Shown: positions 7,471-25,248, numbered from the stretch's first letter. The stretch is 25,515 nucleotides of DNA from Armatimonadota bacterium (GCA_037443365.1 JBBIOM010000029.1:1-25515); one strand, 5' to 3'. The notes: generated from the letters alone by a model not told the origin. Made by a program: numbers and translations.

Positions 7471-8615
7471 AGGAGGTACCTCCGGATCATGGCGCCCACA
7501 GCGGCGTCGCACGCGCGGAACCCGCTCTCGGGGCCGCAGTTGGTCGCGGCCAGGAAGCCGGCGTCACGCGCCGGCGCGAGCCAGATGACCGCATACCACA
7601 AAGTGTTGGTGCCGGTGTGCATGAGGGCGGTTCCCCCGGCCCAATCCCGCTCCACAACGACCCATCCCAACGCGTAGCCCTGCCGGAACTCGTCCCGGTG
7701 GAGGCGCCGGAAGCTTTCAGGACCGACGAGCAGACCCGGTGCGCCCTGCGCGCCGCGCAGGTGGAGCGCCGCATAGCGCGCCCAGTCACTCATCGAACAG
7801 TTGACCGTGCCGGCAGGTCCGATCACCGACGGGTTGTCGGCATCAGGACCCGGCGCGACAGGACTGCAGCCCGGGGGCGCATGCCCCCAGGGCGCCGCGC
7901 CTCCCGGAGCGCCGAAGCCGGCAGCCGGCATCCCCAGCGGGCCGAACAGCATCTGGCGCATGAGGTCTTCCCAGCTCTGCCCGGTCACCTTCTCGGCGAA
8001 AGCGCCGGCGATGGCGTAGCCGAGGTTCGAGTAGAGGAACTGCGAGCCGGGTGGGGCCGCCGGAGCGCGCGAAAGGACGATCTCTGCCAGCGCCCGCCGC
8101 TGCTCCTGAGTGGGACCGCCCAGGCCGCGGACCAGCGGCCAGATCGCCGGGTCCGGAGCGCGGTCGTCGGGCAGCCCGGACCGGTGGGAGAGAAGCTGGG
8201 TCACGGTGACGCGGTGATAAGCCGAGTGGATCCTGCCCAGCAGATCGGGGAAGATCTCCGCCACCGTCGTTTGCCACGACAGCTTCCCTTGTTCGACCAG
8301 CATGGCTACCAGCGTGGCCGTCATGGACTTGGTGCAAGACCCGATGTGAAACCGGTCGTGCGCCTCCACCCGGTCGGCGGTCCCTGCGCGGCGCACACCG
8401 ACCGCGCCCAGTGCGGCAAGGTCGCGCCCGCGCACGAAGGCGCCGGCCAGCGCGGGCATACCGTGCGCTGCGCGGATGGGCTCGAGCAGCCCGTCCAGGG
8501 ACCCAACAGCCGCCTGGGGATAGGCCGCCCGTTCCCAGATGGCTGCGGGGAAGAGCGCGGCGCCCGCGCCGAGAACTGCGATCTTGAGGAAGGCTCGCCT
8601 GTTGATGTGCGCCAT
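7467..8615 (-). CDS. Tat-exported serine hydrolase, beta-lactamase/AmpC-related family
   Basis: Twin-arginine signal NRRAFLK plus a hydrophobic stretch; SxxK (SCTK), LLSHRSGL, YSN, HTG motifs. The ORF-track extension to 9482 is not part of the gene. Confidence 0.9.
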   Translation of the reverse strand: MAHINRRAFLKIAVLGAGAALFPAAIWERAAYPQAAVGSLDGLLEPIRAAHGMPALAGAFVRGRDLAALGAVGVRRAGTADRVEAHDRFHIGSCTKSMTATLVAMLVEQGKLSWQTTVAEIFPDLLGRIHSAYHRVTVTQLLSHRSGLPDDRAPDPAIWPLVRGLGGPTQEQRRALAEIVLSRAPAAPPGSQFLYSNLGYAIAGAFAEKVTGQSWEDLMRQMLFGPLGMPAAGFGAPGGAAPWGHAPPGCSPVAPGPDADNPSVIGPAGTVNCSMSDWARYAALHLRGAQGAPGLLVGPESFRRLHRDEFRQGYALGWVVVERDWAGGTALMHTGTNTLWYAVIWLAPARDAGFLAATNCGPESGFRACDAAVGAMIRRYLL

Positions 8616-8616
8616 C

Positions 8617-8641
8617 TTCGCCGGAGGCCTGCCTGGCTCCT
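8617..8641 (-). promoter_or_regulatory. SigH-like motif AGG-N19-GAA upstream of the serine hydrolase
   Basis: Minus strand CAGGagccaggcaggcctccggcGAAG. It lies only 1 nt from ATG 8615, which is awkwardly close for a real promoter. Confidence 0.3.
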
Positions 8642-8669
8642 GGGGTGCGTTGCAGCCGCCAGGGCCGCG

Positions 8670-8694
8670 AGGGGAATCTGCCCTGGTACGAGAA
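8670..8694 (+). promoter_or_regulatory. SigH-like motif AGG-N19-GAA upstream of the EndoV homologue
   Basis: GAGGggaatctgccctggtacgaGAAA. Predicted start is about 8703, so the SD-less GTG 8706 would be near-leaderless. Confidence 0.45.
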
Positions 8695-8705
8695 ACGCCT
8701 TCGCT

Positions 8706-9401
8706 GTGGACCGTGCCGCGCCGTCCTGGCCCAAGGAACGCGAAGCGCTGATCGCCGCGCAGGAGATGTTGGCCGCGGCATCGCCCGAGGCGTGGCTGTT
8801 CGCGCGCACGTATGCGCTCTCGGCGGCCGGCTGCTTCGTCTGCTTCCCCCGCGGCGCCTCGGGCACGGGAGCCGCCGGGGATCCCGGGTGGGCCGCGGCG
8901 GCGTGGCTGGCAGAAGGCAGACCGGCTGCGATCTCGGTCGTGCGGGGACAGGCGCAAGCGCCCTACGAGCCCGGCCTGCTGGCGCTGCGCGAAGGGCCGC
9001 TGCTCGAGACCGCGGTGCGCGGCCTGCCCGGGGTTCCCGACGTGCTCATCGTCAACGCCACTGGCAGGGATCACCCGAGGCGCGCCGGCCTGGCGCTGCA
9101 CCTTGGCGCCGTGCTGGCGATCCCGACGGTGGGCGTCACCGCGCGCCCCCTGGTCGCAGCGGGCGACTGGCCGCCTGATGAGCGCGGCGCAGCCAGCCCG
9201 CTTCGGATCGGGGACGAGGTGGTCGGCTTCTGGCTGCGCACAAGGCGCGGCGCGCGGCCGTTGGCCGTGCACGCCGCCTGGCGTACCGATCCCGGAACCG
9301 CCCTGGCCGTCGTTGTCGCGGCAACCGGGAACGCGCGCACTCCCGAGCCGCTGCGGCTGGCGCGGCGCGCGGCCCGGGAGGCGCGGGCGGCGCTTCGGTA
9401 G
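8706..9401 (+). CDS. nfi: Endonuclease V homologue with degenerate active site
   Basis: PYEPGLLALREGP, PDVLIVNATGRDHPRR, GLALHLG, PTVGV, LRTR, TPEPLRLA follow the EndoV motif order. GTG start inferred. Confidence 0.85.
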   Translation: MDRAAPSWPKEREALIAAQEMLAAASPEAWLFARTYALSAAGCFVCFPRGASGTGAAGDPGWAAAAWLAEGRPAAISVVRGQAQAPYEPGLLALREGPLLETAVRGLPGVPDVLIVNATGRDHPRRAGLALHLGAVLAIPTVGVTARPLVAAGDWPPDERGAASPLRIGDEVVGFWLRTRRGARPLAVHAAWRTDPGTALAVVVAATGNARTPEPLRLARRAAREARAALR

Positions 9402-9504
9402 GGGCGTTGCGGCGATGCGGTAGCTGCCGCGGATCTGGGAGGAATTGCGCGGCGGCGTGGCAAACAGCGGCGCCAAGGCCACAACGATTAGGGGGGAGAC
9501 GCAG

Positions 9505-13444: not shown

Positions 13445-14470
13445 CTAGGCCACCCCGGGCAGCTTCAGCTCGCCGACGCGATGGCAGCCGACGAGGTGGC
13501 CCGGGGATACCTCCTGGAGGGCCGGCGCGTGCGTCCCGCACAGATCAACGGCGTAGGGGCAGCGCGGGTGGAAGTAGCAGCCCGACGGCGGGTTCGCAGG
13601 GCTTGGGACCTCTCCCTTCAGCTCGACGCTGCCGATCTTGTACCGGGGGTCGGGCACAGGCACCGCCGCCATCAGCGCCGAGGTGTAGGGGTGACCGGGC
13701 TTGCTGTACAGTTCCTGCGTGGTCGCGCTCTCGACGATCTTGCCAACGTACATGACAACAACCCGATCACAGATGTGCTTGACCACGCTCAGGTTGTGCG
13801 CGATGAACAGGTACGTGAGGCCCAACTCGCGCTGCAGGTCGAGCAGGAGGTTCAGTATCTGCGCCTGCACCGAGACATCGAGCGCCGAGACCGGCTCATC
13901 GGCGACCACCAGGCGCGGATTGAGCGCGAGCGCGCGGGCAATGCCGATGCGCTGGCGCTGACCGCCGCTGAAGGCGTGCGGGAAGCGCTGCATGTACTCG
14001 GGCCGCAGGCCTACCCGCGCCAACAGCTCGGCCACACGCTCGAGGCGCCTCTGGCGGTCCGTCAGCCCGTTGACCAGCAGCGGCTCGCCCACGGTATCGA
14101 AGATCGTCATGCGCGGGTTGAGGGAGCCGTACGGGTCTTGGAAGATCATCTGAACCTGTGACCGCAGCGGGCGGATCTCCCGCCGCGTCAGCTTGGCCAG
14201 GTCAACGACAGCGCCCTCGGCCGTCTGGAACAGGATCTCGCCGCCGGTGGGCGAGTAGGCCCGCAGGATGCAGCGGGCCGCGGTTGTCTTGCCGCATCCG
14301 CTCTCACCAACCAGGCCCACGGTCTCCCCTGCCCCGACGGTGAAGCTGACATCGTCCACCGCGCGGACGTACCCGACGATGCGCCGCGTGAAGCCCCTCT
14401 GTATAGGGAAGTACATGCGGAGCCCCCTGACATCCAGCAGCGGCCGGGGCTCCTGGGAGAGCGCCTTCAT
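13445..14470 (-). CDS. ABC transporter ATP-binding subunit, OppF/DppF type
   Basis: [23 protein letters not shown]-terminal [13 protein letters not shown] 14470 overlaps the upstream stop (ATGA). Confidence 0.95.
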
Positions 14471-15525
14471 GCCCACCCCTCCGATCGGTCGTCCAGGAAG
14501 CAACTCACCAGGTGCCCGTCCGGGGTAGGCCGCAGGGCTGGGCTCTGCCGATCACATCTCCCGGGCATGAAGTGCATGCAGCGCGGATGGAACGGACATC
14601 CACGAGGACGGTTGAACGGATGCGGAATCGATCCGCTTATCGTCGGAAGGGTGACCCGCGGCGTCGATCGGATGCTCGGGATCGACCTCAGCAGCGCCTG
14701 CGTATAGGGATGCTTGGGCGCGTGGAAGATCCCGTCCACCGGGCCTTGCTCCATCACCAATCCCAGGTACATCACCATGACGTAGTCCGCGGTATTGGCG
14801 ATGACTCCCAGGTCGTGGGTGATGAAGATGATGGCCGAGTCACGCTCCTCCTGGAGCTGACCAAGCAGGCGCAGCACCTGGGCCTGGGTGGTCACATCCA
14901 CGGCGGTGGTGGGCTCGTCGGCGATGAGCAGCCGTGGGTTGCACGAAAGGGCCATGGCGATCATTGCGCGCTGGCGCAGGCCTCCGCTCAACTGCCAGGA
15001 GTAGTTGTCGAGCCGCTGCTCGGGAGCGGGAATGCCAACGTCACGGAACAGCCCCGCGGCAATCCGGCGCGCCTCGGCCTCGCTCACTGCCTGGTGGAGG
15101 ACGATCGCCTCGATGACCTGGTCGCCCACCGTGTGCACCGGGCTGAACGCCGCCATCGGCTCCTGTGGGATGAGGGCGATCTCGCCCCCTCGTATGCTGC
15201 GCATCTCGCTGCCGGTGGAATCCATCTTCGCCAGGTCCAGGACTTGATCGCCGTCCGCGCCGTCGGGGTCTCCGCTCGGCCGGCGAAGCATGATTTCGCC
15301 GGAGACTATGCGCCCCGGAGGATCCACGATCCGCAGGATGGCCTTGACGGCCACCGTCTTGCCGCAGCCGCTCTCGCCGACGATGCCGAAGACCTGGCCA
15401 GGGTAGACATCGAAGGAGATGCCATCCACGGCCCTGACGGTCCCTTCGTCCATGAAGAAGTGGACCTTCAGGTCTCGGACCGAGAGGAGAGGATGATCCC
15501 CGCTCTTGTGGCTTCTAGTGTCCAT
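14467..15525 (-). CDS. ABC transporter ATP-binding subunit, OppD/DppD type
   Basis: [40 protein letters not shown]. Confidence 0.95.
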
Positions 15526-16666
15526 AGGGATCGGCGGCGTCGCGCAGACCGTCTCCCACGAGATTGAACGCCAGCACGGCCAGGATCACGAGCAGGCCGG
15601 GGATCAGCAGCCAGGGAGCGGTCGCGACCGTCTGGATGTTCTGCGCCTCCTGCAGCAGCACTCCCCAGCTTATCGCCGGGGGCCGAATGCCCAGCCCGAG
15701 GTAACTCAGCGAGGTCTCGCTGATGATCATCACGGGGATGGCCAGGGTGCCGGCCGCTATGATGTGGCTGGCCGCGGCCGGGAGCATGTGGCGGGTGATG
15801 ATGCGCAGCCGGCTGCATCCCGCCAGCTCGGCGGCGAGGACGAAATCCTCCTCGCGCAGGGAAAGGAACCGGCCCCGCACCTCCCGCCCAAGGGTGGTCC
15901 AACCGATGAACGCGAGGATGACGGTGATCGCGAAGAACACCTTCTGCGGGGGCCAGTCCTGCGGCAGCGCCGCGGTCATGGCGAGCCAGATGGGAATCGT
16001 GGGCAGGGACTGCAGCAGCTCGATCAGCCGCTGTATGACCATGTCCGGCCACCCACCCAGATAGCCGGATACACCTCCCAGCAGCGCCCCCAGGATCACG
16101 CTCAGCGCGACGGCGATCAGCCCCACGGTCATGGAGGTCCGCGTGCCGTGCATGAGGCGCGACCACTGGTCACGGCCCATCCGGTCGGTTCCAAGCAGAT
16201 GCACCCTGTCCTGGGTGCCTCCAGCGGTTCCCAGGAGGTGGATGCTCGACTCGAAGAGCCCAAACGGTCTGTACGGGTAGCCGCGCGCGAAGAGGCGGAC
16301 GGGCACCCTCCTCGTCTCGTCGATGTGCCACTCCATGCGCAGGGTGATGGGGTTGCGCTTCCCGACAACGGCGGGGGCCGAGATGCCAAGACGCCCGCCT
16401 TCGATGAGGCTGAGACGCTGGGCCGGGATGAAGGCCATGCGCGCATCGGTGGCCTCGGGGTGCTGGGTGCAGAAGAAGTCGGGGAACAAGACCACGAGGT
16501 ACAGGGCAACCAGCACGACGCAGCTGGCGAGCGCCAGGCGGTGCTTCCTGAAGCGCCACCAGATCAACTGCCAGTTGGACGCCAGCGATACCCGCTCCTC
16601 GGCCTCGGAGACGACGGGCCTGGCGAGCTCGATGACGGCTTCTTCGATCTGCGGGTTCCCGGCCAC
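15515..16666 (-). CDS. ABC transporter permease, OppC/DppC type
   Basis: WWRFRKHRLA, LGTDRMGRD, EAA-like loop FVLAAELAG, ETSLSYLGLG, GDGLRDAADP. Confidence 0.95.
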   Translation of the reverse strand: MAGNPQIEEAVIELARPVVSEAEERVSLASNWQLIWWRFRKHRLALASCVVLVALYLVVLFPDFFCTQHPEATDARMAFIPAQRLSLIEGGRLGISAPAVVGKRNPITLRMEWHIDETRRVPVRLFARGYPYRPFGLFESSIHLLGTAGGTQDRVHLLGTDRMGRDQWSRLMHGTRTSMTVGLIAVALSVILGALLGGVSGYLGGWPDMVIQRLIELLQSLPTIPIWLAMTAALPQDWPPQKVFFAITVILAFIGWTTLGREVRGRFLSLREEDFVLAAELAGCSRLRIITRHMLPAAASHIIAAGTLAIPVMIISETSLSYLGLGIRPPAISWGVLLQEAQNIQTVATAPWLLIPGLLVILAVLAFNLVGDGLRDAADPYGH

Positions 16667-16672
16667 CGTGCC

Positions 16673-17659
16673 TCAGCCCTCCATGCGAATCCGCGGGTCA
16701 GCCCAGGCCAGCAGGATGTCAGAGATCAGCGTCCCGACAATGGTGAGGAAGCAGTAGATCAGCAGGATGCTGCCCGCCAGGTACATGTCCTGGCTCACGA
16801 GCGAGCGCAGCAGCAGCGGCCCGATATTGGGGAGGTTCATCACCGTGGCAACGATTAGACTGCCCGAGAAGAGTTGCGGTAGGTACCAGCCGATGGTGCT
16901 CACCAGCGGGTTCAGCGCGATGCGCACCGGGTACTTCAGGACGAGGCGCCACTCCGAGAGCCCCTTGGCGCGCGCGGTGACAACATAGGGCTTGTTGAGT
17001 TCGTCCAAGAGGTTCGCGCGCATGATGCGCGTGAGACGGGCAGTTCCGGCGATGCCCAGGATGATCATCGGCAGCCAGATGTGCCGAAGCAAGTCGGCCA
17101 CGCGCGCCATGCTCCACGGCGCCTGAACGTACTCGGGCGAGAAGAGCCCGGTAATGCTGACGCCGAAGTGGGAGAAGGCAAGCCACATCAGGACCAGCGC
17201 CAGAAGGAAGTTGGGTGTTGCCACGCCGACGTAGTTCAGCACGGCGAGCGCGTAGTCGAGAAACGAGCGCGGGTGCGTCGCCGCGTAGATGCCCGCCGGA
17301 ATCGCGATCACCCAAGTGAAGATGAAGGAAAGCAGCGCGAGCAGGACCGTCAGAAGCAGGAACTCACCTATCAACTCCCGGTTCGGGCGTTGATACTCCA
17401 GCGAGAGACCCAGGTCGCCCTTGAGCAGGCTCTCCATCCAGCGGACGTACTGGATGTGGACGGGCTGGTCGAGGCCGAACTGGTGCTTCAGCGCCTCTAC
17501 CTGCGCCATCTCCACCGAGGAGCCGGACGCCGCCAGCATCGAGATGTAACTGGTCAGGAAGTCGCCCGGCGGCGCCTGCACGAGCAAGAAGACGACAATT
17601 GAGAAGACCAGGAGCAGGATGGGTAGGAGTAGCAGGCGTTGGACAATGACCCGCAGCAC
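16673..17659 (-). CDS. ABC transporter permease, OppB/DppB type
   Basis: PPGD, FGLDQP, GDLGLS, YVVTARAKGL, SDILLAWADPRIR. Confidence 0.95.
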   Translation of the reverse strand: MLRVIVQRLLLLPILLLVFSIVVFLLVQAPPGDFLTSYISMLAASGSSVEMAQVEALKHQFGLDQPVHIQYVRWMESLLKGDLGLSLEYQRPNRELIGEFLLLTVLLALLSFIFTWVIAIPAGIYAATHPRSFLDYALAVLNYVGVATPNFLLALVLMWLAFSHFGVSITGLFSPEYVQAPWSMARVADLLRHIWLPMIILGIAGTARLTRIMRANLLDELNKPYVVTARAKGLSEWRLVLKYPVRIALNPLVSTIGWYLPQLFSGSLIVATVMNLPNIGPLLLRSLVSQDMYLAGSILLIYCFLTIVGTLISDILLAWADPRIRMEG

Positions 17660-17683
17660 CGGCTCTGGACCTCGCTTTCAATC

Positions 17684-17728
17684 CGGCGGCGGGCGGCACC
17701 GGTCTGGTGCCGTTGCCGCCCGCCGCCG
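17684..17728. other. Strong intercistronic stem-loop between the SBP and permease genes
   Basis: CGGCGGCGGGCGGCA (17684-17698) / TGCCGCCCGCCGCCG (17714-17728), perfect 15-bp arms with a 15-nt loop and no U-tract. Confidence 0.75.
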
Positions 17729-17741
17729 CGTACTTCCTCGA

Positions 17742-19718
17742 TCACCTCTTGTAGAAGAACTGCTCGGGGCGTGCGTTCCCCAGGGTGCGCAGAGGCCAGT
17801 CATTGCCGAGCTTGTCCGGGATGTTGCGCATCCGGACGTTGGCCACGACCACTCCCTGGATCATCGGCGTCAGACCGATGAGCCCGATCTCGTACATGTT
17901 GTCCACCCAGATCCTGAAGATCTCCTGGGCGATCCTTACCTGCTCCCTTGTGCCGACCGTCTTGCCCCTGTCGATCAACTCGACGATCCGCTTGGTCTCA
18001 GCAGGGGGCTCGGCGCCTTCCCTTCCGCCCGTATCGTACCACTGCTTCCAGAGCGGCCCCGTGGTGATCGTCCCATACAGGAGAGAACGCGGGTCGTACT
18101 TCGGCACCCCCGTGAACGGGAAGCCAGAGGTGTCCTGATTCCAGATCTCGGCCTGGAGGTCGTTGGCCATACGCATCGTGAAGTGCAGCGCCCGGTCGCG
18201 GACGTGGACGATGGTCCTGATGCCCACCCTCTCCCAGTCCTTGGCGACCAACTGCGCGATGTCGGGCCAGGGACCAAACGCCGGGACCACGGAGAGTTCG
18301 ACCGTGGCGCGCCTGGTCGTCCCGGGCAGGAGGCGGAACCCTTCCGCGTCCTTTCGGTCCAGACCGATCCTGTCCAGCATCCTGTTGGCTTCGTCCATCC
18401 TGTGCTCGGTGTACTTCTTCGCCACCGCATCGCCCGGATAGTACGGGTGCCAGGGGGCGGCCACGGGCTGGCGGGGCACGCCAAGCCCCAGGAACGCGGA
18501 CTCCTTGATCTCGTTGCGGTTGATGGCGAGCGACATGGCGATGCGGAAGTCCCTGTTCTGGAACAGCCGGCCCAGATCAGGATCCCTGGCGAAGGTCTGG
18601 TTGAAGGTGACCGAGGCATCCGTGCCGCCGAAGGTCGGCCACAGGATGATGCGGTACTTGCCCGCCTTCTTCTCCTGCTCCTTGAACACGGGGTAGTTGG
18701 CCAGGCTGATGTGCCGCTCCTGCAGATCCAGTTGTCCGGCGATCGCCGCCATGTTCAGGGAGACGGCGTCGGTGAAGAACTTGAACTGGATGAAGTCTAT
18801 GTAGGGGAGCTGGTTGCCCTCCTTGTCCACGCCCACGAAGTAAGGGTTGCGCCGCAGGATGAACATCTGGTCGCTGATGCGGGTGACAGGCACCCAGGCC
18901 GCCATGGTGGGGCGCATGGGGTTCTCCGGGGGGTGGTTCCTGGCGGCGAAGAGCTCCACCCAGGTCCTGAACTTGGCGTCGGCGACAAGCCGATCCAGCG
19001 TTGCCCTGTCGGTGTACCTGGCGTGGAACTGCTTGAGGTAGTGCGCGGGCAGGAAGACCGCGTAGACCCGGTCGCCGCTATCCTTGTTGGCGAGCTCCAT
19101 CAAGAAGGTGGTGTTCGGCTCCTTGTACACCCAGCGGACCGTGAGGTCGTCCACCTTCTCGACCGTAACGGTCGTGCCGTCCCTGTTCCTCATCCAGGTA
19201 GGGATAGCGGGCGTGAGGTCCTTGTTCAGGAGCACGTCGTTGTACCAGAACATGATGTCGTCAGCGGTAAACGGCGCGCCGTCCGACCACTTGGCACCCT
19301 TGCGCAGCGTCACCGTCCAGGAGGTGAAGTCCTTGGAGGGCTCGGCCTTCGAGGCCAGCTTGGGATCGATCTTCGTCCCGTCCGGCGAGTAGCGAACGAG
19401 CGCATCGTAGACAACGCGATGGTAGTTGTTGAAGTCACCGGGTCCCAGGAACCCTCGGCGCCACATGCCTCCGTACTGGCCGATGCTCTCGAAGGTCTCA
19501 ACCACGAGCGGGTTTTCGGGAAGGCGCTGGCTCACCGGCGGAAGCTTTCCTTCCTTCACGAGCGGGGCGAGCATGGGCGCTTCCTTGTAGGTCTTCGCGG
19601 CCGCCGGGGCGGCAGACGCCGGGGCCAGGGTCAGCGCGGGAACCGGTGCATAGACGCCGAGGCCTAGCGCCAGGACCACGATCGCGACAACCAACGTGCC
19701 GTGCGGACTGCCCTTCAT
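17742..19718 (-). CDS. ABC transporter substrate-binding protein, family 5 (DppA/OppA-like)
   Basis: Sec signal without a lipobox Cys; EAPML..GKLPPVSQRLPENPLVV..IGQYGG, LRKGAKWSDGAPFTADD, RNPYF..D..GNQLPYID, FRIAMSLAINR; SD GGAGAGG before ATG 19718. Confidence 0.93.
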   Translation of the reverse strand: MKGSPHGTLVVAIVVLALGLGVYAPVPALTLAPASAAPAAAKTYKEAPMLAPLVKEGKLPPVSQRLPENPLVVETFESIGQYGGMWRRGFLGPGDFNNYHRVVYDALVRYSPDGTKIDPKLASKAEPSKDFTSWTVTLRKGAKWSDGAPFTADDIMFWYNDVLLNKDLTPAIPTWMRNRDGTTVTVEKVDDLTVRWVYKEPNTTFLMELANKDSGDRVYAVFLPAHYLKQFHARYTDRATLDRLVADAKFRTWVELFAARNHPPENPMRPTMAAWVPVTRISDQMFILRRNPYFVGVDKEGNQLPYIDFIQFKFFTDAVSLNMAAIAGQLDLQERHISLANYPVFKEQEKKAGKYRIILWPTFGGTDASVTFNQTFARDPDLGRLFQNRDFRIAMSLAINRNEIKESAFLGLGVPRQPVAAPWHPYYPGDAVAKKYTEHRMDEANRMLDRIGLDRKDAEGFRLLPGTTRRATVELSVVPAFGPWPDIAQLVAKDWERVGIRTIVHVRDRALHFTMRMANDLQAEIWNQDTSGFPFTGVPKYDPRSLLYGTITTGPLWKQWYDTGGREGAEPPAETKRIVELIDRGKTVGTREQVRIAQEIFRIWVDNMYEIGLIGLTPMIQGVVVANVRMRNIPDKLGNDWPLRTLGNARPEQFFYKR

Positions 19719-19824
19719 GGTGATCCCCCTCTCCTGCCAGCCTGATTTCAGGTCCATTCCATGTTCCGTACCATGCGGTTTCAGCGCCTTCTGTCTCCTC
19801 GCCCACCTCCAGTCGGGCCTGGGC

Positions 19825-20259
19825 CTACCCGCCGACCCTCACCCGATCGAAGTCCCACCCGAACCTCTCACACACAGCCCGAACATGGCTCTCCCAGGTC
19901 GGCTCGCCCTGGGGTCTTCCGCCAAGGAAGGCACCGACGCTCAGGTAGCGCAGCGGCCGCAAGCCCGTGCAGGTGATGCCGTGAGGCGTGCGGGGGGGTA
20001 TGCGAACCAGATCGCCTGGCCTCACCGGATGGCTCTGCTCCGGCTCACCTATCACCAGGTTGCCGGCGCCTTCCAGCACGTAGAAGATCTGCTCCATGTC
20101 GTCGTGGACGTGCCGGGGCGCTGCCCCGCCGGGCTCCACCACAACGATGAACGCCTCGGAGGTCTCCGCCTGGGAGCGGTCCATCACCAGGTCGTTTATG
20201 TGGGTCGGGAATCGGTAGCGGACGGTATCGGCGGTGCTGAACACGTATCGCGTCACCAT
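19825..20259 (-). CDS. Cupin domain protein
   Basis: PRHVHDDMEQIFYVLEG and GDLVRIPPRTPHG metal motifs; ATG 20259 with SD GGGAGG. Confidence 0.9.
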   Translation of the reverse strand: MVTRYVFSTADTVRYRFPTHINDLVMDRSQAETSEAFIVVVEPGGAAPRHVHDDMEQIFYVLEGAGNLVIGEPEQSHPVRPGDLVRIPPRTPHGITCTGLRPLRYLSVGAFLGGRPQGEPTWESHVRAVCERFGWDFDRVRVGG

Positions 20260-20270
20260 CCGGCCTCCCT

Positions 20271-21287
20271 TCACCTGCCGTCCGCCGCCGCGAGCGCGTC
20301 GATCGCCTCGGGCGGGGTTCCAGGGCTGACGCCTCCGCCGGCGGAGAGAATCAGCCCTCTTCCGCCGGTCTTGCGCATGCAGTCGCGCGCCCACGCACGC
20401 ACATCATCGGGGGTGCCGCGCACCATGGTGTCCAGCGGCGGGACGTTGCCCATGAGCGCGACACCCGGCATCTTCGCGCTGACGTCGGCCACGTCCATCA
20501 TGTGGCTGAAGTTGAAGACATCGAAGCCGAGCGTGGCCATGGGCTTGACCAGGTGCGGGCAGGGAGTGTCGTTGTGGAAGATCTTCACGAGCCCGACGAA
20601 CTCGCCAAAGATGCGGGAGAGGCGCGGGCGCGCGAACCGCTCGAAGAGGTCGGGTGAGAGCATGCCGACGATGTCGTCGAGCAGCATGATGCCCTCGGGC
20701 GCGCGAAGCACTTCCAGCTGCGCGCGCAGCCAGGCGATGGCCGTGGCGGTGAGCGTGTCGAGCAGGCGGTGGCTCGCCTCGGGCTCTGTCTTGAGCGCGA
20801 TCAGGAACTCGCTCACTCCCAGCAGCCACGACGCCACCGCGAACGGGCCGCGCGCCGCGACCACCCGCACATTGACGCCCTCGGGCAAGAGCCGGCGCTC
20901 GGCGTCGGCATAGCGTGACAGGACCAGCGGCATCAATCCGTGTCGGGTCGGGTCCGGGGGGTCGATCCCGGCGAGCGAGGCGAGGCCGCCCCTTACGGGC
21001 TCTATGGACGGCGGCTGATCGTCGTGCCAGATGACGCGGGCGCCAAACGCGGATGGCTCAGCGGCCATGCCGTACTCCACCCAGTACCCGGGAATCCAGG
21101 CCACCTCGGGAAACCGCTCGGATAGCCCCAGGTTGACGCGCAGCCACTCGTCGGGTCGCAGGAAGTAGTCCAGCGTGCCAATGCCGGCGTATCCGGGCAG
21201 CCACGGGCTGTCCACGATCAACGCGACGGGCACCCTGTCGGCCTGTCCGCCCCGCGCAACCGCGACGAACCGCTCCCAGGGGGACAT
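20271..21287 (-). CDS. UROD/MtaA-CmuA superfamily protein (non-HemE), paralogue 1
   Basis: MSPWERF..DRVPV, AEPSAFG, RGPFAVA, MLSPDLFERF, IFHND, LMGNVPP, GTPDDV, ILSAGGG..PGTPPE; no HemE MRQAGR motif. Confidence 0.85.
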   Translation of the reverse strand: MSPWERFVAVARGGQADRVPVALIVDSPWLPGYAGIGTLDYFLRPDEWLRVNLGLSERFPEVAWIPGYWVEYGMAAEPSAFGARVIWHDDQPPSIEPVRGGLASLAGIDPPDPTRHGLMPLVLSRYADAERRLLPEGVNVRVVAARGPFAVASWLLGVSEFLIALKTEPEASHRLLDTLTATAIAWLRAQLEVLRAPEGIMLLDDIVGMLSPDLFERFARPRLSRIFGEFVGLVKIFHNDTPCPHLVKPMATLGFDVFNFSHMMDVADVSAKMPGVALMGNVPPLDTMVRGTPDDVRAWARDCMRKTGGRGLILSAGGGVSPGTPPEAIDALAAADGR

Positions 21288-21300
21288 CGTTCCAGACTCC

Positions 21301-22368
21301 CTACGCACCGGAGGTCGGGGCGCTGCCGGAAGGCGCGGGCCCAGTGGACTTGCGCACGGTCAAGGGGCTCTCCATAAGGGTATAGCCCTCGCCCGGAGGC
21401 GGCTGTCCCAGGACCATGCGTCGCAGAAGCTGCATCGCGATGCGCCCCATACGGTACTTGGGTTGGGCGACGGTGGTCAGGGGAGGGTCGGCGTGAGCCG
21501 CCATCGCGATGTCGTCGAAGCCGATCACCGAGATGTCCTCCGGCACCCGCAGGCGGTGCGCCCGCACGGCGTGCAGCACTCCGAAGGCCATGATGTCGTT
21601 GTAGACAACCACGGCCGTCGGGCGGTCCTCCGGCTCCGCCGTCAGGAGCGCGCTCATCGCCAGGAACCCTCCGCTAACGCTCGGCAGGCTGGAAAGACAC
21701 CATTCGGGCCGCAGGGTGAGCGACGCCTCTGTCAGGGCGGCCTCGATTCCGCGCCGCCGGGCCTGCGAGGCCTCGGAGGCGCCCGGCCCTGAGATGTAGG
21801 CAATGCGGGTGTGGTGAAGATCCAGGAGGTGACGCGTCGCGCGGTAGGTGGCGTTCTCGGAGTCAATGGTCACGCAGTGAATCTCAGGATCCTTGATGCA
21901 CCGGTTCAGCACGACCATCGGCAGCCGGTGACGGCTGCGCACGGCGATCAACTGGTCGGTGGGTAGGCGCAGGCCGCAGGCTATCACGCCGCTCGCCGAG
22001 CGCGCGGCCAGGGTCCGCAGTATGTGCTCCTCCCTCTGCGGATCCTCGGTCGTGTCAACGAGCAGGGTGATGGATCCGTGGGTGCCGCCTTCGTCCTGAA
22101 CGCCCCGCGCGATCTCGGCGAAGTACGGGTTCAGGATGTCGGGGACAAGGAGCACGACCGCGTCCTGCAGGGCCGAGGCGTTTGAGCGCGCGGGCAGCGG
22201 CCTATAGCCCAGGGCGTTGATGGAAGCCAGAACGCGCGCCCGGACGCTCTCGCGCACCGGCGCGCTGTTGTTGAGCACGCGCGACACCGTGGCCAATGAG
22301 ACGCCGGCACCGCGCGCCACGTCGGAGAGGTTCGGGCGGGGCCTCCTGACGTTCACACCTGCCCCCAT
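21301..22368 (-). CDS. LacI family transcriptional regulator
   Basis: LSDVARGAGVSLATVSRVLN HTH, NPYF, PTAVVVYND, VPEDISVIGFDD, PPLTTV, RKST. Start is 22368 or GTG 22356. Confidence 0.95.
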   Translation of the reverse strand: MGAGVNVRRPRPNLSDVARGAGVSLATVSRVLNNSAPVRESVRARVLASINALGYRPLPARSNASALQDAVVLLVPDILNPYFAEIARGVQDEGGTHGSITLLVDTTEDPQREEHILRTLAARSASGVIACGLRLPTDQLIAVRSRHRLPMVVLNRCIKDPEIHCVTIDSENATYRATRHLLDLHHTRIAYISGPGASEASQARRRGIEAALTEASLTLRPEWCLSSLPSVSGGFLAMSALLTAEPEDRPTAVVVYNDIMAFGVLHAVRAHRLRVPEDISVIGFDDIAMAAHADPPLTTVAQPKYRMGRIAMQLLRRMVLGQPPPGEGYTLMESPLTVRKSTGPAPSGSAPTSGA

Positions 22369-22383
22369 GGTCCTGACTGATAG

Positions 22384-22432
22384 TGATGGGTCTTTCAGAA
22401 AATACTATGCTATGGCGCGAAAAACATGTCAA
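22384..22432 (-). promoter_or_regulatory. Sigma70 promoter of the lacI-led operon, with a possible operator at +1
   Basis: TTGACA (22432-22427)-N17-CATAGT (22409-22404) in an AT-rich patch; TGAAAGACCCATCA (22397-22384) resembles a LacI-family operator. Confidence 0.65.
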
Positions 22433-22453
22433 GCGTGTCTTGGATTGGGGAGA

Positions 22454-23605
22454 TCAGGCGTACCTTCCGCACTCGCAGACCGCCTCCCACATGGCGACGA
22501 TGTTCTGTGGCGGCACATCAGCCTGGATGTTGTGCACGGCGCTGAAGACATAGCCCCCGCCGGGAGCGAGGGCCTCGAGGTTGCGCTTCACGTCGTCCCT
22601 CACCTGCCCGGGAGTGCCGTGCGGCAGGACCTCCTGGGTGTCCACGCCTCCGCCCCAGAAGGCGATATCGCCCCCGAAGTCGCGCTTGAGGGCGGCGGGC
22701 TCCATGCCGCTCGCACGAAGGTGCACCGGATTCAAGGCGTCCACGCCCAGCTCGATGAAGTCAGGCAGGAGAGGGCGCACGTTGCCGCATGAGTGGAAGA
22801 AGAGGAAGGCGCCGGGAGCGAGCCGCCTGATGTGATCGAACAGGATCTGCAGCCGCGGCTTGAACAGCCTGCGGAACATGCGCGGCGAGATGAGCTGCGA
22901 GGTCTGGGTGCCGTAGTCGTCCGCCTCTGATACCACGTCAATCACGCCGGCGAGGCGCGGCAGGGCCATCCCCCAGAAGGCCAGCTTCAGCTCCAGCATC
23001 TTGTCGAGAATCGCGCACGCGAGCGCCTCGTTCAGCACCAGGTCCGCCAGGAATCTCTCCATGCCGCGCACGCGCTGGGCCATCTCGAAGATCCCGGCCA
23101 GCACGCCCTTCACCACCACGGCCTTGCCCCCTGCGCGGTACGCCGCGGCCTGCTGGCGCAGCCCCTCGATGCGCCCCGGATCACCCGTATCGGGCCATGC
23201 CCGCGCGCGGACGTCGTTGACGCCCGGGTCCTCCTCCAACGGAGAGCGCATGATCGAATAGTACAGGCCATCGGGTTTCGGGCGCCTGTGCACGATCCCC
23301 CACTCATCGGTGTACTCCCAGGCGTCGCCCACGTCCACTTCGCTCACGCCCCAGTTGTGGCTGCATCGAGGGAAGAGCCCGCGCGCGTCAACTCCAAGGC
23401 GCTCGATCAGGTCCTCGTCCGGGAACGCGAGCTGCTGGATCGTGTCGCACAGATGCGGATCCACGCGCGGGAGGCCGATGTGATCACGCAGCCCCTGATA
23501 GGCGAGGGCGTGGATGCCCGTGACCTGCGTGCTGCCAAGATCAAGCGGCACACGGTCGGGCTCGCGGTGTGCTAGCGCGACAAGAAGGCGCTCGCGGGAG
23601 TCCAC
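22454..23605 (-). CDS. UROD/MtaA-CmuA superfamily protein (non-HemE), paralogue 2
   Basis: SRERL..HREPDRVPLDLG, TDEWG, RGMERFLAD, ADDYGTQ..LISP, FFHSCG, WGGGVDTQ..LPHGTP, GGGYVFSAVHNIQ. Start is GTG 23605 (SD AGGTGA) or 23614. Confidence 0.88.
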   Translation of the reverse strand: MDSRERLLVALAHREPDRVPLDLGSTQVTGIHALAYQGLRDHIGLPRVDPHLCDTIQQLAFPDEDLIERLGVDARGLFPRCSHNWGVSEVDVGDAWEYTDEWGIVHRRPKPDGLYYSIMRSPLEEDPGVNDVRARAWPDTGDPGRIEGLRQQAAAYRAGGKAVVVKGVLAGIFEMAQRVRGMERFLADLVLNEALACAILDKMLELKLAFWGMALPRLAGVIDVVSEADDYGTQTSQLISPRMFRRLFKPRLQILFDHIRRLAPGAFLFFHSCGNVRPLLPDFIELGVDALNPVHLRASGMEPAALKRDFGGDIAFWGGGVDTQEVLPHGTPGQVRDDVKRNLEALAPGGGYVFSAVHNIQADVPPQNIVAMWEAVCECGRYA

Positions 23606-23640
23606 GGAAATCACCTGCCAGCAACGCCCCCACGCAAGGG

Positions 23641-23664
23641 TTCACCACGCGGGCACCCATGCCT
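23641..23664 (-). promoter_or_regulatory. SigH-like motif AGG-N18-GAA upstream of UROD paralogue 2
   Basis: Minus strand GCAGGcatgggtgcccgcgtggtGAAC. Confidence 0.5.
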
Positions 23665-23685
23665 GCCATGAGCCGGCGCAGCGGG

Positions 23686-23711
23686 AGGCCAGGGGAAGAG
23701 CTATGGTGAAT
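23686..23711 (+). promoter_or_regulatory. SigH-like motif AGG-N19-GAAT upstream of the corrinoid arm
   Basis: GAGGccaggggaagagctatggtGAAT, back-to-back with the 23641-23664 site. Confidence 0.5.
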
Positions 23712-23760
23712 TCTTGACAGACTGTGCAAGACAACTGTGAGTAGATAACATGAAGGCACC

Positions 23761-24066
23761 ATGACCCCTGGATGACTGCACATGATGGGCGATGATTTCG
23801 CAACGCAGACCGGCCTTCTGGTGAGCCCGCAGAAGTGGAAGCGCTTCCTCAAGCCCGGCATCCGGCAGTACATCGACCTCGCCCACGCGCGCGGCCTCAG
23901 GGTGACGCACCACACGTGCGGCGCTGTAGAACCTCTCATCCCCACGTCCATCGGCACGGCGCACAACCTCCAGGCGGACATTCCCGTGGAGAACATAGTA
24001 GCGCTCCCGAAGGCCTATCATGAGTTTGCCCATACGAGGCGAGGTGGACGGCATGACGGCGCTTGA
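23761..24066 (+). pseudogene. Internally deleted remnant of a third UROD-family gene
   Basis: MTPG* then MMGDDFATQTGLLVSP..HHTCGAVEPLIP joined directly to IGTAHNLQADIPVENIVAL. Compared with paralogue 2, the N-terminal two thirds and about 70 aa between HxCG..P and the HN motif are missing. Confidence 0.8.
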
Positions 24067-24691
24067 GCGGCTCCGCACCGCGATCATCGAGGGCGCAGCG
24101 GAAGAGGCGGCGGCGCGCGTCGCGGAGGCGCTTGATGAGGGGACCGACGCGCAAACGATTCTGAATGGGGCGCTCATTCCGGCGATGGCCGAGGTCGGAC
24201 GGCGGTTTGAGGAGGGTGAGTACTTCGTCCCGGAGATGCTCGTCGCGGCGCGGGCGATGAAGGAAGGCCTGCGACTCCTCAAGCCGCACCTGGCCGCGGC
24301 GGCGGTGAAGCCTGCAGGAAGGGTCGCGCTCGGCACGGTCAGGGGCGACCTGCACGATATCGGAAAGAACCTGGTCGCCATGATGCTGGAGGGCGCCGGG
24401 TTCGAGGTCCTGGATCTCGGCGTGGACGTGCCGCCCGAGCGATTCGCCGACGCGGTTCGGCAAGGCGTGGGCATCATCGGCATGTCCGCGCTGCTCACCA
24501 CGACGATGCCGCTGATGAAAACGACGATCGAGCGTCTCGCACAGATGGGGTTGCGCGATGCCGTCCGCGTGATGGTGGGAGGCGCCCCGGTAACGGAGGC
24601 CTTCGCCAGATCCATCGGCGCCGACCTCTATGCCCCAGACGCAAGCGCGGCGGCGCGCGGAGCCCTGGCGCTTGTCGCCGGGGAAGAGTAG
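24053..24691 (+). CDS. Corrinoid (cobalamin-binding) methyltransferase partner protein, MtaC/MttC-like
   Basis: Cap domain (LIPAMAEVGRRFEEGEYFVPEML) and B12 motif GDLHDIGKNLV..DLGVDV..MSALLTTT..VGGAPV; SD GAGGTGG; ORF intact. Confidence 0.95.
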   Translation: MTALERLRTAIIEGAAEEAAARVAEALDEGTDAQTILNGALIPAMAEVGRRFEEGEYFVPEMLVAARAMKEGLRLLKPHLAAAAVKPAGRVALGTVRGDLHDIGKNLVAMMLEGAGFEVLDLGVDVPPERFADAVRQGVGIIGMSALLTTTMPLMKTTIERLAQMGLRDAVRVMVGGAPVTEAFARSIGADLYAPDASAAARGALALVAGEE

Positions 24692-24697
24692 CACGGC

Positions 24698-25090
24698 ATG
24701 GGCATCGAGGCGCTCGCCGAAGCCCGCCGCATCGAGGCGTACGGCATCGCGTCCAGCGCGCCGATCGCGGTGGACGCCTACTACCGCTTCCTGCGGATCG
24801 GTCTGCCCGTCGCCGTGGTGACCAACTCGCACGTGGAGGCCGTCAGCGCCTCACTGCTCCTGAAGGGGGATGTCGGCCGGAGCGACGGTCATCGCCCTCA
24901 CCTCGTTCCTGCGATCGCCAATCACCAGGGTTGCGCACGTCGCACTGGCCACGGCATCCGCGGAGATGGCGTTTAGGAACGAGGCGCTGGCGTCGCGCAT
25001 CGCTCATCGCCGATGTCCACCCCGGACGCTTCGCGGAGGCCAAGGCCGACCTCGAGGCACTGCGCCTGCTGGACGAGGTCATTGACGAGG
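24698..25090 (+). pseudogene. Fragmented MurR/RpiR-family regulator (SIS domain pieces, no HTH)
   Basis: ARRIEAYGIASSAPIAVDAYYRFLRIG..SH..SASLL.KGDV, frame change at about 24875 to AGATVIALTSFLRSPIT..EALASRIAH, second frame change at about 25007. The ISxSG segment is absent. Confidence 0.75.
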
Positions 25091-25248
25091 AGCTTCCTCA
25101 GGCGCTTGAAGGAGCCGATCTCGCCATCCTCGCCGTCGTATCAGACGTGGCGCTACCGGTGCTCGAGCGCGCGCCCGTTCCTGCCACCGGGAATGCCGCT
25201 CATGGCCCTCCGCGCGAGGCCTGCTTCGCGCCCGTCAGGCGCCCGTGA
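25087..25248 (+). pseudogene. Short Rossmann-fold fragment resembling NAD(P)-dependent glycerol-3-phosphate dehydrogenase (GpsA-like)
   Basis: EELPQALEGADLAILAVVSDVALPVLERA only; there is no start codon and no GxGxxG. Confidence 0.35.

Follow-up and report, generated by a model that had tools for sequence, protein, structure and literature searches.

Corrinoid O-demethylases are described from acetogens, Desulfitobacterium and methoxydotrophic archaea. They are composed of a substrate:corrinoid methyltransferase (MT1), a corrinoid protein (CP), a second methyltransferase (MT2) and an activating enzyme, and this MT1-CP-MT2-activator machinery is already known. In the accessible text of a preprint by Kountz and Balskus (PMC10418091), the S-methyltransferases of the UroD superfamily retain a His-Cys-Cys metal site, whereas the O-methyltransferases swap one or both cysteines for carboxylates or non-ligands. 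Sugars that carry methyl ethers or methyl esters are barred from ordinary glycolytic processing. The only sugar demethylase found in literature searches, as far as the accessible texts go, is an O2-dependent P450 acting on 6-O-methyl-galactose. The same searches, in which supplementary files were not covered, returned no paper joining corrinoid methyltransferases with sugars and nothing on the enzymatic demethylation of methylglucuronic acid; no paper was found on how anaerobes remove methyl groups from sugars. The present work concerns contig JBBIOM010000029.1 of the Armatimonadota bacterium assembly GCA_037443365.1, analysed over its entire length of 25,515 nucleotides (contig C29, hereafter the window). 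Between positions 13445 and 24691 it carries a LacI regulator gene, two genes of the UROD family (UROD1 and UROD2), a cupin gene, an ABC importer and a CP gene. From the sequences, and with modest confidence, this locus is read as a LacI-repressed operon for the uptake and corrinoid-dependent demethylation of a methylated carbohydrate.

According to the proposed mechanism, the family-5 solute-binding protein (SBP) and the Dpp/Opp-type ABC transporter would import a methylated sugar or a short, probably acidic, oligosaccharide. UROD1 and UROD2 would be two MtaA-like, metal-dependent MT1 enzymes with different specificities, each of which would activate the methyl-bearing oxygen and pass the methyl group to the Co(I) of the CP. 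Subsequently, the methyl-Co(III) CP would deliver the methyl group to tetrahydrofolate (THF) via a pterin-binding methyltransferase encoded elsewhere in the genome (contig C2 or C16), and from there it would enter the Wood-Ljungdahl pathway or methionine synthesis. Oxidised cobalt would be re-reduced by an activator of the RACo/RamA type, also encoded elsewhere, and the cupin would act on the sugar, possibly as an isomerase. For the methyl donor, the candidates are a sugar ether, a uronate methyl ester and the aryl methyl ether of a glycoside. We infer the methyl transfer, its direction, the substrate class and the pairing of regulator with operator from the sequences. More tentatively, with the balance tipped slightly against it, UROD1, UROD2 and further paralogs may form a widespread and unrecognised class of O2-free, corrinoid-dependent carbohydrate demethylases. 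Candidate targets are 4-O-methyl-glucuronate, 6-O-methyl-galactose, 2-O-methyl-fucose or xylose, and uronate methyl esters, and the methyl-THF of such enzymes would flow into the Wood-Ljungdahl pathway or be oxidised to formate.

UROD1 (open reading frame, ORF, 20271..21308, minus strand; probable gene 20271..21287) and UROD2 (22454..23614, minus strand) match the URO-D family with 148.4 and 77.3 bits, respectively. UROD1 likely begins at M8, since its copy in the database is 338 aa long with the eighth codon as its start, so that the overlap with lacI disappears. By sequence, UROD1 is an MtaA-like (beta/alpha)8 protein and a candidate substrate:corrinoid O-methyltransferase (MT1), and UROD2 is a second MtaA-like protein and candidate second MT1. 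HemE identity was considered and rejected: the hemE model TIGR01464 gives UROD1 51.4 bits against a cut-off of 302.95 and does not hit UROD2, and the true HemE of the genome is encoded on contig C22 (427.1 bits, PF01208). The mtaA_cmuA model TIGR01463 scores 85.0 bits for UROD1 and 57.8 bits for UROD2 (cut-off 235.4), and PRK06252 scores 98.9 and 47.9 bits (cut-off 244). The best solved-structure match of both proteins is the Methanosarcina mazei MtaA 4AY7 (phmmer E 6.8e-15 for UROD1 and 5.5e-6 for UROD2). The AlphaFold2 model of UROD1 (pLDDT 95.1, pTM 0.93) retrieves 4AY7 first in a fold search (TM 0.83, E 1.5e-17), and the HemE structures come next (TM 0.79). The grouping of both proteins with the corrinoid methyltransferases and not with HemE, made in an initial annotation of the window from its sequence, is supported by MtaA/CmuA scores above the hemE score and by the fold of UROD1, which is nearest to MtaA.

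The metal site sets the two proteins apart from the characterised members of the MtaA/CmuA family, whose His-x-Cys...Cys zinc site is not kept in either. Aligned to 4AY7, the zinc positions H-x-C...C of MtaA read H-N-D...G in UROD1 and H-S-C...G in UROD2. The triad H238-N239-D240 of UROD1 is invariant in 50/50 sequences, down to 34% identity. In the UROD2 family, the Cys column holds C in 15/23 sequences and D in 8/23, and the third position is G in all 23. Judged by these residues, the metal motifs of UROD1 and UROD2 fit the O-methyl type and not His-Cys-Cys. In a tree of the UROD paralogs, computed as a quick version only and with long, unsure deep branches (HemE, C11, C37 and L019b), UROD2 is sister to the UROD encoded beside a CP on contig C39 (SH-aLRT 95). 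A protein search with UROD1 yields at least 3753 proteins at E <= 1e-20 among 8000 candidates scored. Every source name among the best 120 matches is 'uroporphyrinogen decarboxylase (family protein)', and the Atlas search likewise returned URO-D family names only.

The CP (24020..24691, plus strand) combines the cap and Rossmann domains PF02607 (B12-binding_2, 87.5 bits) and PF02310 (B12-binding, 86.6 bits). It reads GDLHDIGKN at the DxHxxG motif and keeps all invariant columns of alignment A2, in which D110, H112 and G115 are invariant. The NCBIfam models for MtgC (199.5 bits) and pyl_corrinoid (185.9 bits) place it as MtgC/MtbC-like, and it matches the Moorella cobalamin-binding protein 1Y80 (E 2.2e-53), MttC and the CP 4JGI of a Desulfitobacterium O-demethylase. 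For the predicted complex of UROD1 with the CP, the median score over three runs is 0.78, against 0.01 for the best of three controls. The mark set for such predictions is reached by 58/80 solved complexes and 2/110 mismatched pairs, counts that are approximate because the present predictions start from custom alignments. At least 77% of the contacts are common to the runs, with a partner pLDDT of at least 81. On the side of UROD1, the interface is formed by residues 158-167, 209-214, 245 and 285-286, which are barrel-top loops placed just after the invariant D204-D205 and H238-N239-D240. The CP contributes residues 66-78, 113-118 (beside the D110-x-H112 loop), 190 and 192. The prediction supports the binding of UROD1 to the CP.

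The linkage between UROD and corrinoid genes is conserved in other genomes. Forty relatives were taken into the search for UROD1 orthologs; the tallies over the relatives include a genome flagged unpublished (G015), on which no specific claim depends. Orthologs with 80-86% identity occur in 4/7 other genomes of the same genus, and a second genus contributes one more genome. The CP lies within 4 kb of the UROD1 ortholog in 6/6 Armatimonadota genomes that have one (G000, G002, G004, G005, G006 and G020), and three layouts are found: CP and UROD2 co-directional, CP between the genes for the second permease (permC) and the first ATPase (ATPaseD), and CP divergent. Four relatives show the order CP>UROD2>LacI>UROD1>cupin>SBP>permB>permC>ATPase>ATPase on one strand, namely G002, G004, G006 and an Armatimonadota metagenome-assembled genome (MAG) that bears the label Candidatus Nitrosymbiomonas. 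Identity to the window proteins is just 58-59% for their CP, against 63-95% for the other locus proteins. In G020, from another genus, the CP sits between permC and ATPaseD, and in G005 it is located about 2.3 kb upstream of UROD1.

Beyond Armatimonadota, a scan of genome contigs gave 75 UROD1 loci in MAGs labelled as about nine phyla. Most of them are Chloroflexota MAGs with 53-72% identity, and one locus at 71% identity is labelled Acidobacteriota. Distant members (34-50%) carry the labels Verrucomicrobiota, Spirochaetota, Caldatribacterium, Actinomycetota, Bacteroidota and Sedimentisphaerales. An HMM search detects a CP in 7/75 loci. In L019, L021 and L072, the CP gene is immediately followed by Pterin_bind, and L057 and L050 contain RACo. 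Complete MT1-CP-MT2 sets are found in relatives. L019 is ordered KduI, SDR, oligogalacturonate-lyase-like (OGL-like), amidohydrolase, ADH, GFO, AKR, UROD1, CP, Pterin_bind, UxaC, UROD, CE15 esterase and UxaE. RACo is encoded in 50/50 UROD1 carrier genomes examined; among the relatives, it is found in 6/6 with a UROD1 ortholog versus 15/35 of the others.

An independent context is that of a MAG contig labelled Bacteroides (G090 C12, L101-L103). It encodes a 34%-identical UROD1 homolog in which H-N-D and the family invariants are kept, with ROK, porphyranase-like, sulfatase, GH29 fucosidase, GH2 and galactokinase-like proteins as neighbours. Approximately 30 kb away on the same contig are genes for RACo, CP, AraC, FTHFS, Pterin_bind, MTHFR and an FAD oxidoreductase; this Pterin_bind protein is 47% identical to that of L019 and is encoded about 3 kb from the CP. 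By its gene content, the contig is predicted to hold a complete route from methyl-CP to formate within a sulfated-glycan degradation region. Porphyran contains 6-O-methyl-galactose, whose known demethylation is by P450 (PMC10033563, accessible text).

The neighbourhoods of UROD1 consist mostly of genes for sugar transport and for sugar and uronate catabolism. The ORFs of the 75 loci gave 1010 proteins, which were clustered, and the clusters were named by Pfam. At least one of 15 counted transporter, regulator and sugar-catabolic families is present in 57/75 loci, and seven of the 18 loci lacking them are shorter than 7 kb. Among the 75 loci, ABC ATPases are found near UROD1 in 38, permeases in 26, SBP5 in 25, UxaC and SDR in 23 each, UROD2 in 22, UxaE in 20, LacI in 16, and LarA_N-like and GFO/IDH/MocA proteins in 14 each. 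NagB-like proteins follow in 12 loci, AGE, NagA-like proteins and sulfatases in 11 each, the 145-aa type of cupin in 10, the 111-aa type and Zn-ADH in 8 each, AKR in 7 and OGL-like proteins in 6. The initial annotation had proposed an O- or N-methylated sugar or polyol as substrate. The carbohydrate link of this proposal is supported by the neighbourhoods and by the clade of the SBP, and the N-methyl and polyol substrates are left without support.

A third paralog, UROD3, is absent from the window and occurs in 21/75 loci, usually beside UROD2 and UROD1. It keeps H-x-C...C-C like the thiol methyltransferases, and examples are found in Chloroflexota at L043:6715-7797, L022:8879-9994 and L057:8902-10005. 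UROD3 might be an MT2-like or an S-methyl enzyme. A fourth UROD clade (cluster 26) is present in 5 loci.

The importer has the layout of the Opp/Dpp type, with SBP_bac_5, two BPD_transp_1 permeases and two oligo_HPY ATPases, all on the minus strand. The SBP (671 aa, 17742..19757) matches SBP_bac_5 with 178.5 bits. It is followed by an OppB-like permease (16673..17659; BPD_transp_1 and BPD_transp_1_N; 84-95% identity in relatives) and an OppC-like permease (15515..16666; BPD_transp_1 and OppC_N). The DppD/OppD-like ATPase (14467..15525; ABC_tran and oligo_HPY) shares 81-88% identity with its copies in relatives. The DppF/OppF-like ATPase (13445..14503) matches ABC_tran with 113.1 bits, oligo_HPY with 70.9 bits and the NCBIfam dipeptide ABC ATPase model with 408.1 bits, and is 77-83% identical to the copies of relatives. 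The solved chain nearest to the SBP is T. maritima 5IPW (E 6.6e-110), for which the accessible text of PMC9314435 gives no known ligand. The SBP aligns to the pectin-binding SPH1118 with E 1.3e-78 and to the alpha-galactoside-binding AgpA with E 2.7e-38, and its nearest relatives with a known ligand are, in the same accessible text, binders of pectin oligosaccharides and alpha-galactosides (PMC9314435). Peptide and nickel binders align to it in short stretches only. The earlier suggestion of a sugar-type family-5 SBP agrees with this placement in a carbohydrate-binding clade.

The cupin gene (ORF 19825..20394, minus strand; Cupin_2, 66.5 bits) probably starts at the ATG at 20262, which gives a gene at 19825..20262 and a protein of 145 aa with the metal motif HxH..E..H. 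Its model (pLDDT 90.5) has a fold that matches generic metal cupins. Searches by sequence and by fold returned only generic metal cupins such as quercetinase, oxalate decarboxylase, archaeal phosphomannose isomerase and TM1459. The role of isomerase or epimerase given to the cupin in the initial annotation finds no support in these generic matches. A KdgF-like role was dropped, having no support from the sequence or fold searches. The cupin recurs beside UROD and CP on C39, and after UROD1 in Chloroflexota loci.

The LacI regulator (21301..22368, minus strand) shows the layout of its family, with an N-terminal LacI helix-turn-helix (HTH) domain and a Peripla_BP_1/3 effector domain (PF00356, 59.0 bits; PF13377, 136.6 bits; PF00532, 116.8 bits). 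LacI orthologs with 57-83% identity are encoded directly upstream of UROD1 in 15 loci. The comparison of the stretches upstream of lacI gave the palindrome TTTC(A/T)GAAA, which lies at most 65 bp upstream of lacI in 15/15 loci and nowhere else in those loci. The loci compared have LacI proteins at least 55% identical, and the 15 loci correspond to 11 non-redundant ones, the window counted. In the window, the candidate operator TTTCAGAAA (22393..22401) is the sole TTTCNGAAA, with 0.05 expected by chance. A sigma-70-like promoter of the lacI-UROD1-cupin-ABC operon (22404..22432, minus strand) reads TTGACA-17-CATAGT, with 10/12 consensus matches, and is the only such site in 19700-24100. The palindrome TTTCAGAAA falls just after the -10 element and overlaps the lacI promoter, whose TTGACA is kept in relatives. 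In Chloroflexota, the palindrome is placed between TTGACA and TATACT, and a second copy lies ahead of the start codon. Palindrome scans of the intergenic regions revealed no classical LacI operator with central CG. The conserved candidate operator on the lacI promoter supports the LacI control put forward in the initial annotation; LacI would govern lacI-UROD1-cupin-ABC.

The ten genes of the locus were all recovered in the order and at the coordinates of the initial annotation by ORF listing and by Pfam and NCBIfam models run on the window proteins. A Pfam scan also confirmed that the window encodes neither a RACo/RamA activator nor a pterin-binding protein, so no pterin-binding MT2 accompanies MT1 and CP there. 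The assembly comprises 2.22 Mb in 69 contigs and is 97.7% complete. The whole genome has six URO-D, three B12-binding_2, two RACo, two Pterin_bind and one MTTB match, and no MtrH match. The search for an activator and a methyl-THF methyltransferase outside the window was successful: the two RACo and two Pterin_bind genes are on C2 and C16, so the enzymes absent from the window exist in the genome. C2 (L092) encodes RACo, an AcsE-like protein, the ACS/CODH beta subunit, two CdhD-type CFeSP subunits, a CooC-like protein, a FolC-like ligase and FTHFS; by its predicted gene content, it is the Wood-Ljungdahl cluster of this genome. C16 (L093) encodes RACo, a protein with a homocysteine S-methyltransferase domain and Pterin_bind, which together correspond to a split MetH-like set. 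Probably, the organism lives anaerobically and can make use of methyl-THF.

A second UROD-CP pair of the same genome is found on C39 (L090, 6015-16151). There, LacI is divergent from UROD, CP, cupin, SBP_bac_1/8 and two permeases (a CUT1-type sugar ABC importer), and the module continues with GFO, a xylose-isomerase-like TIM protein, a DegT aminotransferase and a ceramidase-like protein. This module may act on an amino sugar. On C37 (L091, 10390-16105), an L-fucose isomerase gene is divergent from LacI, after which come an ABC-F ATPase and a 435-aa URO-D protein.

The surroundings of the CP in the window are rearranged. Directly upstream of it and on the same strand is the remnant of a third UROD2-like gene (23782..24022, plus strand), which aligns in blastx to UROD2 residues 232-287 (40% identity, E 1e-9) and 361-381, and lacks the first ~230 residues and an internal stretch of ~73 residues. 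Downstream, the RpiR regulator of the initial annotation does not hold: a decayed RpiR/SIS gene (24698..25248, plus strand) is present only as frameshifted SIS pieces with no HTH, of which a 92-aa piece matches just the SIS part of RpiR models, and its reading frame is broken. G001, a genome of the same genus, encodes an intact 306-aa regulator with HTH_6 and SIS after a CP that is 88% identical to that of the window. The UROD remnant beside the CP indicates that the CP arrived within a UROD-CP(-RpiR) module that has since decayed. The divergent intact CP of the initial annotation stands as to its integrity, with DxHxxG and the invariants kept, and fails as to the ancestral layout, which has undergone a strain-specific replacement. 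Contigs from four public runs were aligned to the window across the junction. The probable source sample contains a 9-kb contig that extends over 21000-24357, so the junction is reproduced by a second assembler. Contigs of a related strain (95-99% alike, from three other samples) cover the window only to ~23536-23607, and one of them continues into unlike sequence at 23607, which indicates that the rearrangement is strain-specific. The third-position G+C of the CP is 0.83, and that of its neighbours 0.82-0.91.

From ~24330, the contigs of the source sample are fragmented and the depth climbs from 34 to 45-59, which suggests a repeated or multi-strain stretch. In the relative G002 (contig C5, L087, 16368-19588), the stretch just past the CP end of the orthologous locus carries a C39-type UROD paralog together with an AbiEi/AbiEii toxin-antitoxin pair. 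The remaining genes of the window, whose G+C is 63-72%, look unrelated to the locus: they encode an aldolase, a PLP enzyme, an M19 dipeptidase, a DAO oxidoreductase, DinB, a ferritin, two MFS transporters, a beta-lactamase-fold protein, endonuclease V, TspO and DUF305. Two long ORFs that overlap on opposite strands at 7467-9482 are artefacts of high G+C; the real genes there are two, do not overlap and encode a beta-lactamase-fold domain (~7520-8490, minus strand) and an endonuclease V domain (~8910-9360, plus strand).

Several points weigh against the reading of the locus as an operon for carbohydrate demethylation. Both UROD proteins score far under the curated MtaA/CmuA cut-offs, and the score of the predicted complex may in part come from solved methyltransferase-CP complexes of other folds that the predictor has learned. 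The phenolates of known UROD-type O-demethylases are better leaving groups than an aliphatic sugar ether. LacI operators typically have a central CG, which is missing from TTTC(A/T)GAAA. Apart from the cupin, no sugar-catabolic enzyme is encoded in the window. In the genome, no UxaC and no pectinesterase are detected by Pfam models and no AGE and no CE15 by tblastn, so the uronate context of Chloroflexota need not apply here. Within the fetched flanks, the CP is present in just 7/75 of the non-Armatimonadota loci, and the co-occurrence with RACo is weak because its base rate is 120/151 in one Chloroflexota class. In addition, this strain has lost the ancestral CP and the region upstream of UROD2 to a replacement, the present CP has a UROD remnant on one side and a decayed RpiR gene on the other, and no promoter-like site for UROD2 or the CP is found in 19700-24100. 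Due to this replacement and to the lack of a promoter-like site, the copy in the window may be impaired. That the pathway is as proposed and this copy is a decaying, partly non-functional locus left by the rearrangement is unlikely, though serious enough to be kept in view, and is compatible with the other readings. Such decay would account for the two damaged genes around the CP, the loss of the ancestral CP upstream of UROD2, the lack of a promoter-like site for UROD2 or the CP in 19700-24100, the end of the related-strain contigs at ~23536-23607 (one into unlike sequence at 23607) and the occurrence of an ortholog in only 4/7 same-genus genomes. On the other hand, all ten genes are open with the family invariants kept, the lacI promoter and palindrome are intact, the third-position G+C of the CP (0.83) is within the range of its neighbours (0.82-0.91), and the 9-kb contig of the source sample spans 21000-24357.

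Other readings concern the chemistry itself. A classical aryl-methyl-ether O-demethylase could act on a glycosylated or carbohydrate-linked methoxy-aromatic, such as phenolic or flavonoid glycosides or lignin-carbohydrate fragments, whose sugar moiety would explain the transporter and LacI. Pairs of GFO/IDH/MocA and xylose-isomerase-like TIM proteins are known from the oxidative deglycosylation of glycosides, and they accompany UROD genes in 14/75 loci (GFO count) and on C39. CE15 esterases release lignin-carbohydrate esters, and one is encoded in L019. Quercetinases are among the best sequence and fold matches of the cupin, and the characterised UroD-superfamily O-demethylases OdmB and VdmB are phenolic in the accessible text of PMC10418091. 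However, no annotated locus contains genes for aromatic-ring catabolism, enzymes for uronates and amino sugars prevail among the neighbours together with sulfatases, the homolog in Bacteroidota lies in a region for sulfated glycans, and the matches of the cupin are generic; this reading is rather doubtful. It is quite improbable that the UROD-fold proteins are cofactor-independent decarboxylases or other sugar-acid enzymes and that the nearby CPs serve other methyltransferases. The 68/75 loci without a CP in the fetched flanks, the HemE folds that match UROD1 nearly as well as MtaA (TM 0.79 versus 0.83), the carboxylates of uronic acids together with the frequent UxaC and UxaE neighbours, and the origin of the window CP in a decayed foreign module speak for such enzymes. 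They are countered by the linkage of the CP in 6/6 Armatimonadota genomes, in three arrangements and once inside the ABC operon, by the UROD1-CP-Pterin_bind runs of L019 and L021 and the CP-Pterin_bind run of L072, and by the UROD-CP pair on C39. The invariant H-x-D at the metal site of MtaA, the predicted UROD1-CP complex (0.78 versus 0.01 for the best control) and the RACo of 50/50 carrier genomes examined point in the same direction. The least probable of the alternatives is a methyl-sulfur, methyl-selenium or N-methyl substrate (methylthio-sugars or N-methyl amino sugars), as in type 1 mlp and methylamine systems. It is suggested by the H-x-C of the window UROD2, the full H-x-C...C-C of Chloroflexota UROD3, the DegT-type aminotransferase on C39 and the resemblance of several UROD paralogs plus a CP to mlp clusters (accessible text of PMC10418091). 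Nevertheless, UROD1 has no Cys ligand (invariant H-N-D, with G at the third position), the UROD2 family has D for C in 8/23 and lacks the third Cys in 23/23, and the annotated loci contain no sulfur or selenium genes. The known N-demethylating MT1s, moreover, belong to other folds.

The novelty relative to the known machinery lies in the sugar-related setting, in UROD clades of the O-type, in a cupin as partner and in control by LacI. If the class of carbohydrate demethylases is real, thousands of genes are mis-annotated, and the methyl groups of plant and algal glycans would have a new entry into C1 metabolism. In subsurface, sludge, sediment and gut habitats, acetogenic-type metabolism would gain a new methyl source. 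The class would represent an anaerobic counterpart of the P450 sugar demethylases and a new oxygen-free biocatalyst for carbohydrate demethylation.

With the corrinoid O-demethylases, the present system shares a UroD-superfamily MT1 candidate, a small B12-binding_2 and B12-binding protein with DxHxxG, and a metal site in which Cys is replaced by Asp or a non-ligand. MT2 and RACo are present in the genome, MT2 is linked in relatives (L019, L021, L072 and the Bacteroides-labelled contig), and the proposed methyl flow to THF and a Wood-Ljungdahl cluster is common to both. It differs in that LacI-regulated sugar importers and sugar or uronate catabolic clusters are found here instead of aromatic-compound loci, in that MT2 and the activator are unlinked in this genome, and in its two to four distinct UROD paralogs per locus with a conserved cupin partner. 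The presumed donor is here a carbohydrate methyl group. The methylcobamide:coenzyme M methyltransferases MtaA, MtbA and MtsA (4AY7) have the same barrel, with metal ligands at the same strand ends, and work with a separate corrinoid protein, as is proposed here. In contrast to them, the present proteins read H-N-D...G (UROD1) and H-S-C/D...G (UROD2), have no coenzyme M context and come from a bacterial host.

The type 1 mlp clusters, in the accessible text of PMC10418091, are, like the present family, widespread in anaerobes and also place several divergent MtaA-like paralogs beside one corrinoid protein, with the H4folate methylase often missing from the cluster. The mlp proteins described there, Mlp2 and Mlp3 among them, have His-Cys-Cys, and their clusters, mostly of Firmicutes, contain a RACE gene and sulfur or selenium genes. 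The present loci differ from them, in a comparison made by description only, by O-type ligands, the lack of RACE in the cluster and the carbohydrate context. As for the importer, the window SBP resembles SPH1118 and AgpA, aligning over nearly its whole length, and its closest solved relative, 5IPW, has no known ligand. Finally, the P450 6-O-methyl-D-galactose demethylase of marine porphyran degraders (accessible text of PMC6292453 and PMC10033563) also removes a methyl ether that blocks sugar catabolism and is encoded in polysaccharide-degradation loci. It is O2-dependent and oxidative and yields formaldehyde, whereas the route proposed here would be independent of O2 and would conserve the methyl group as methyl-THF.

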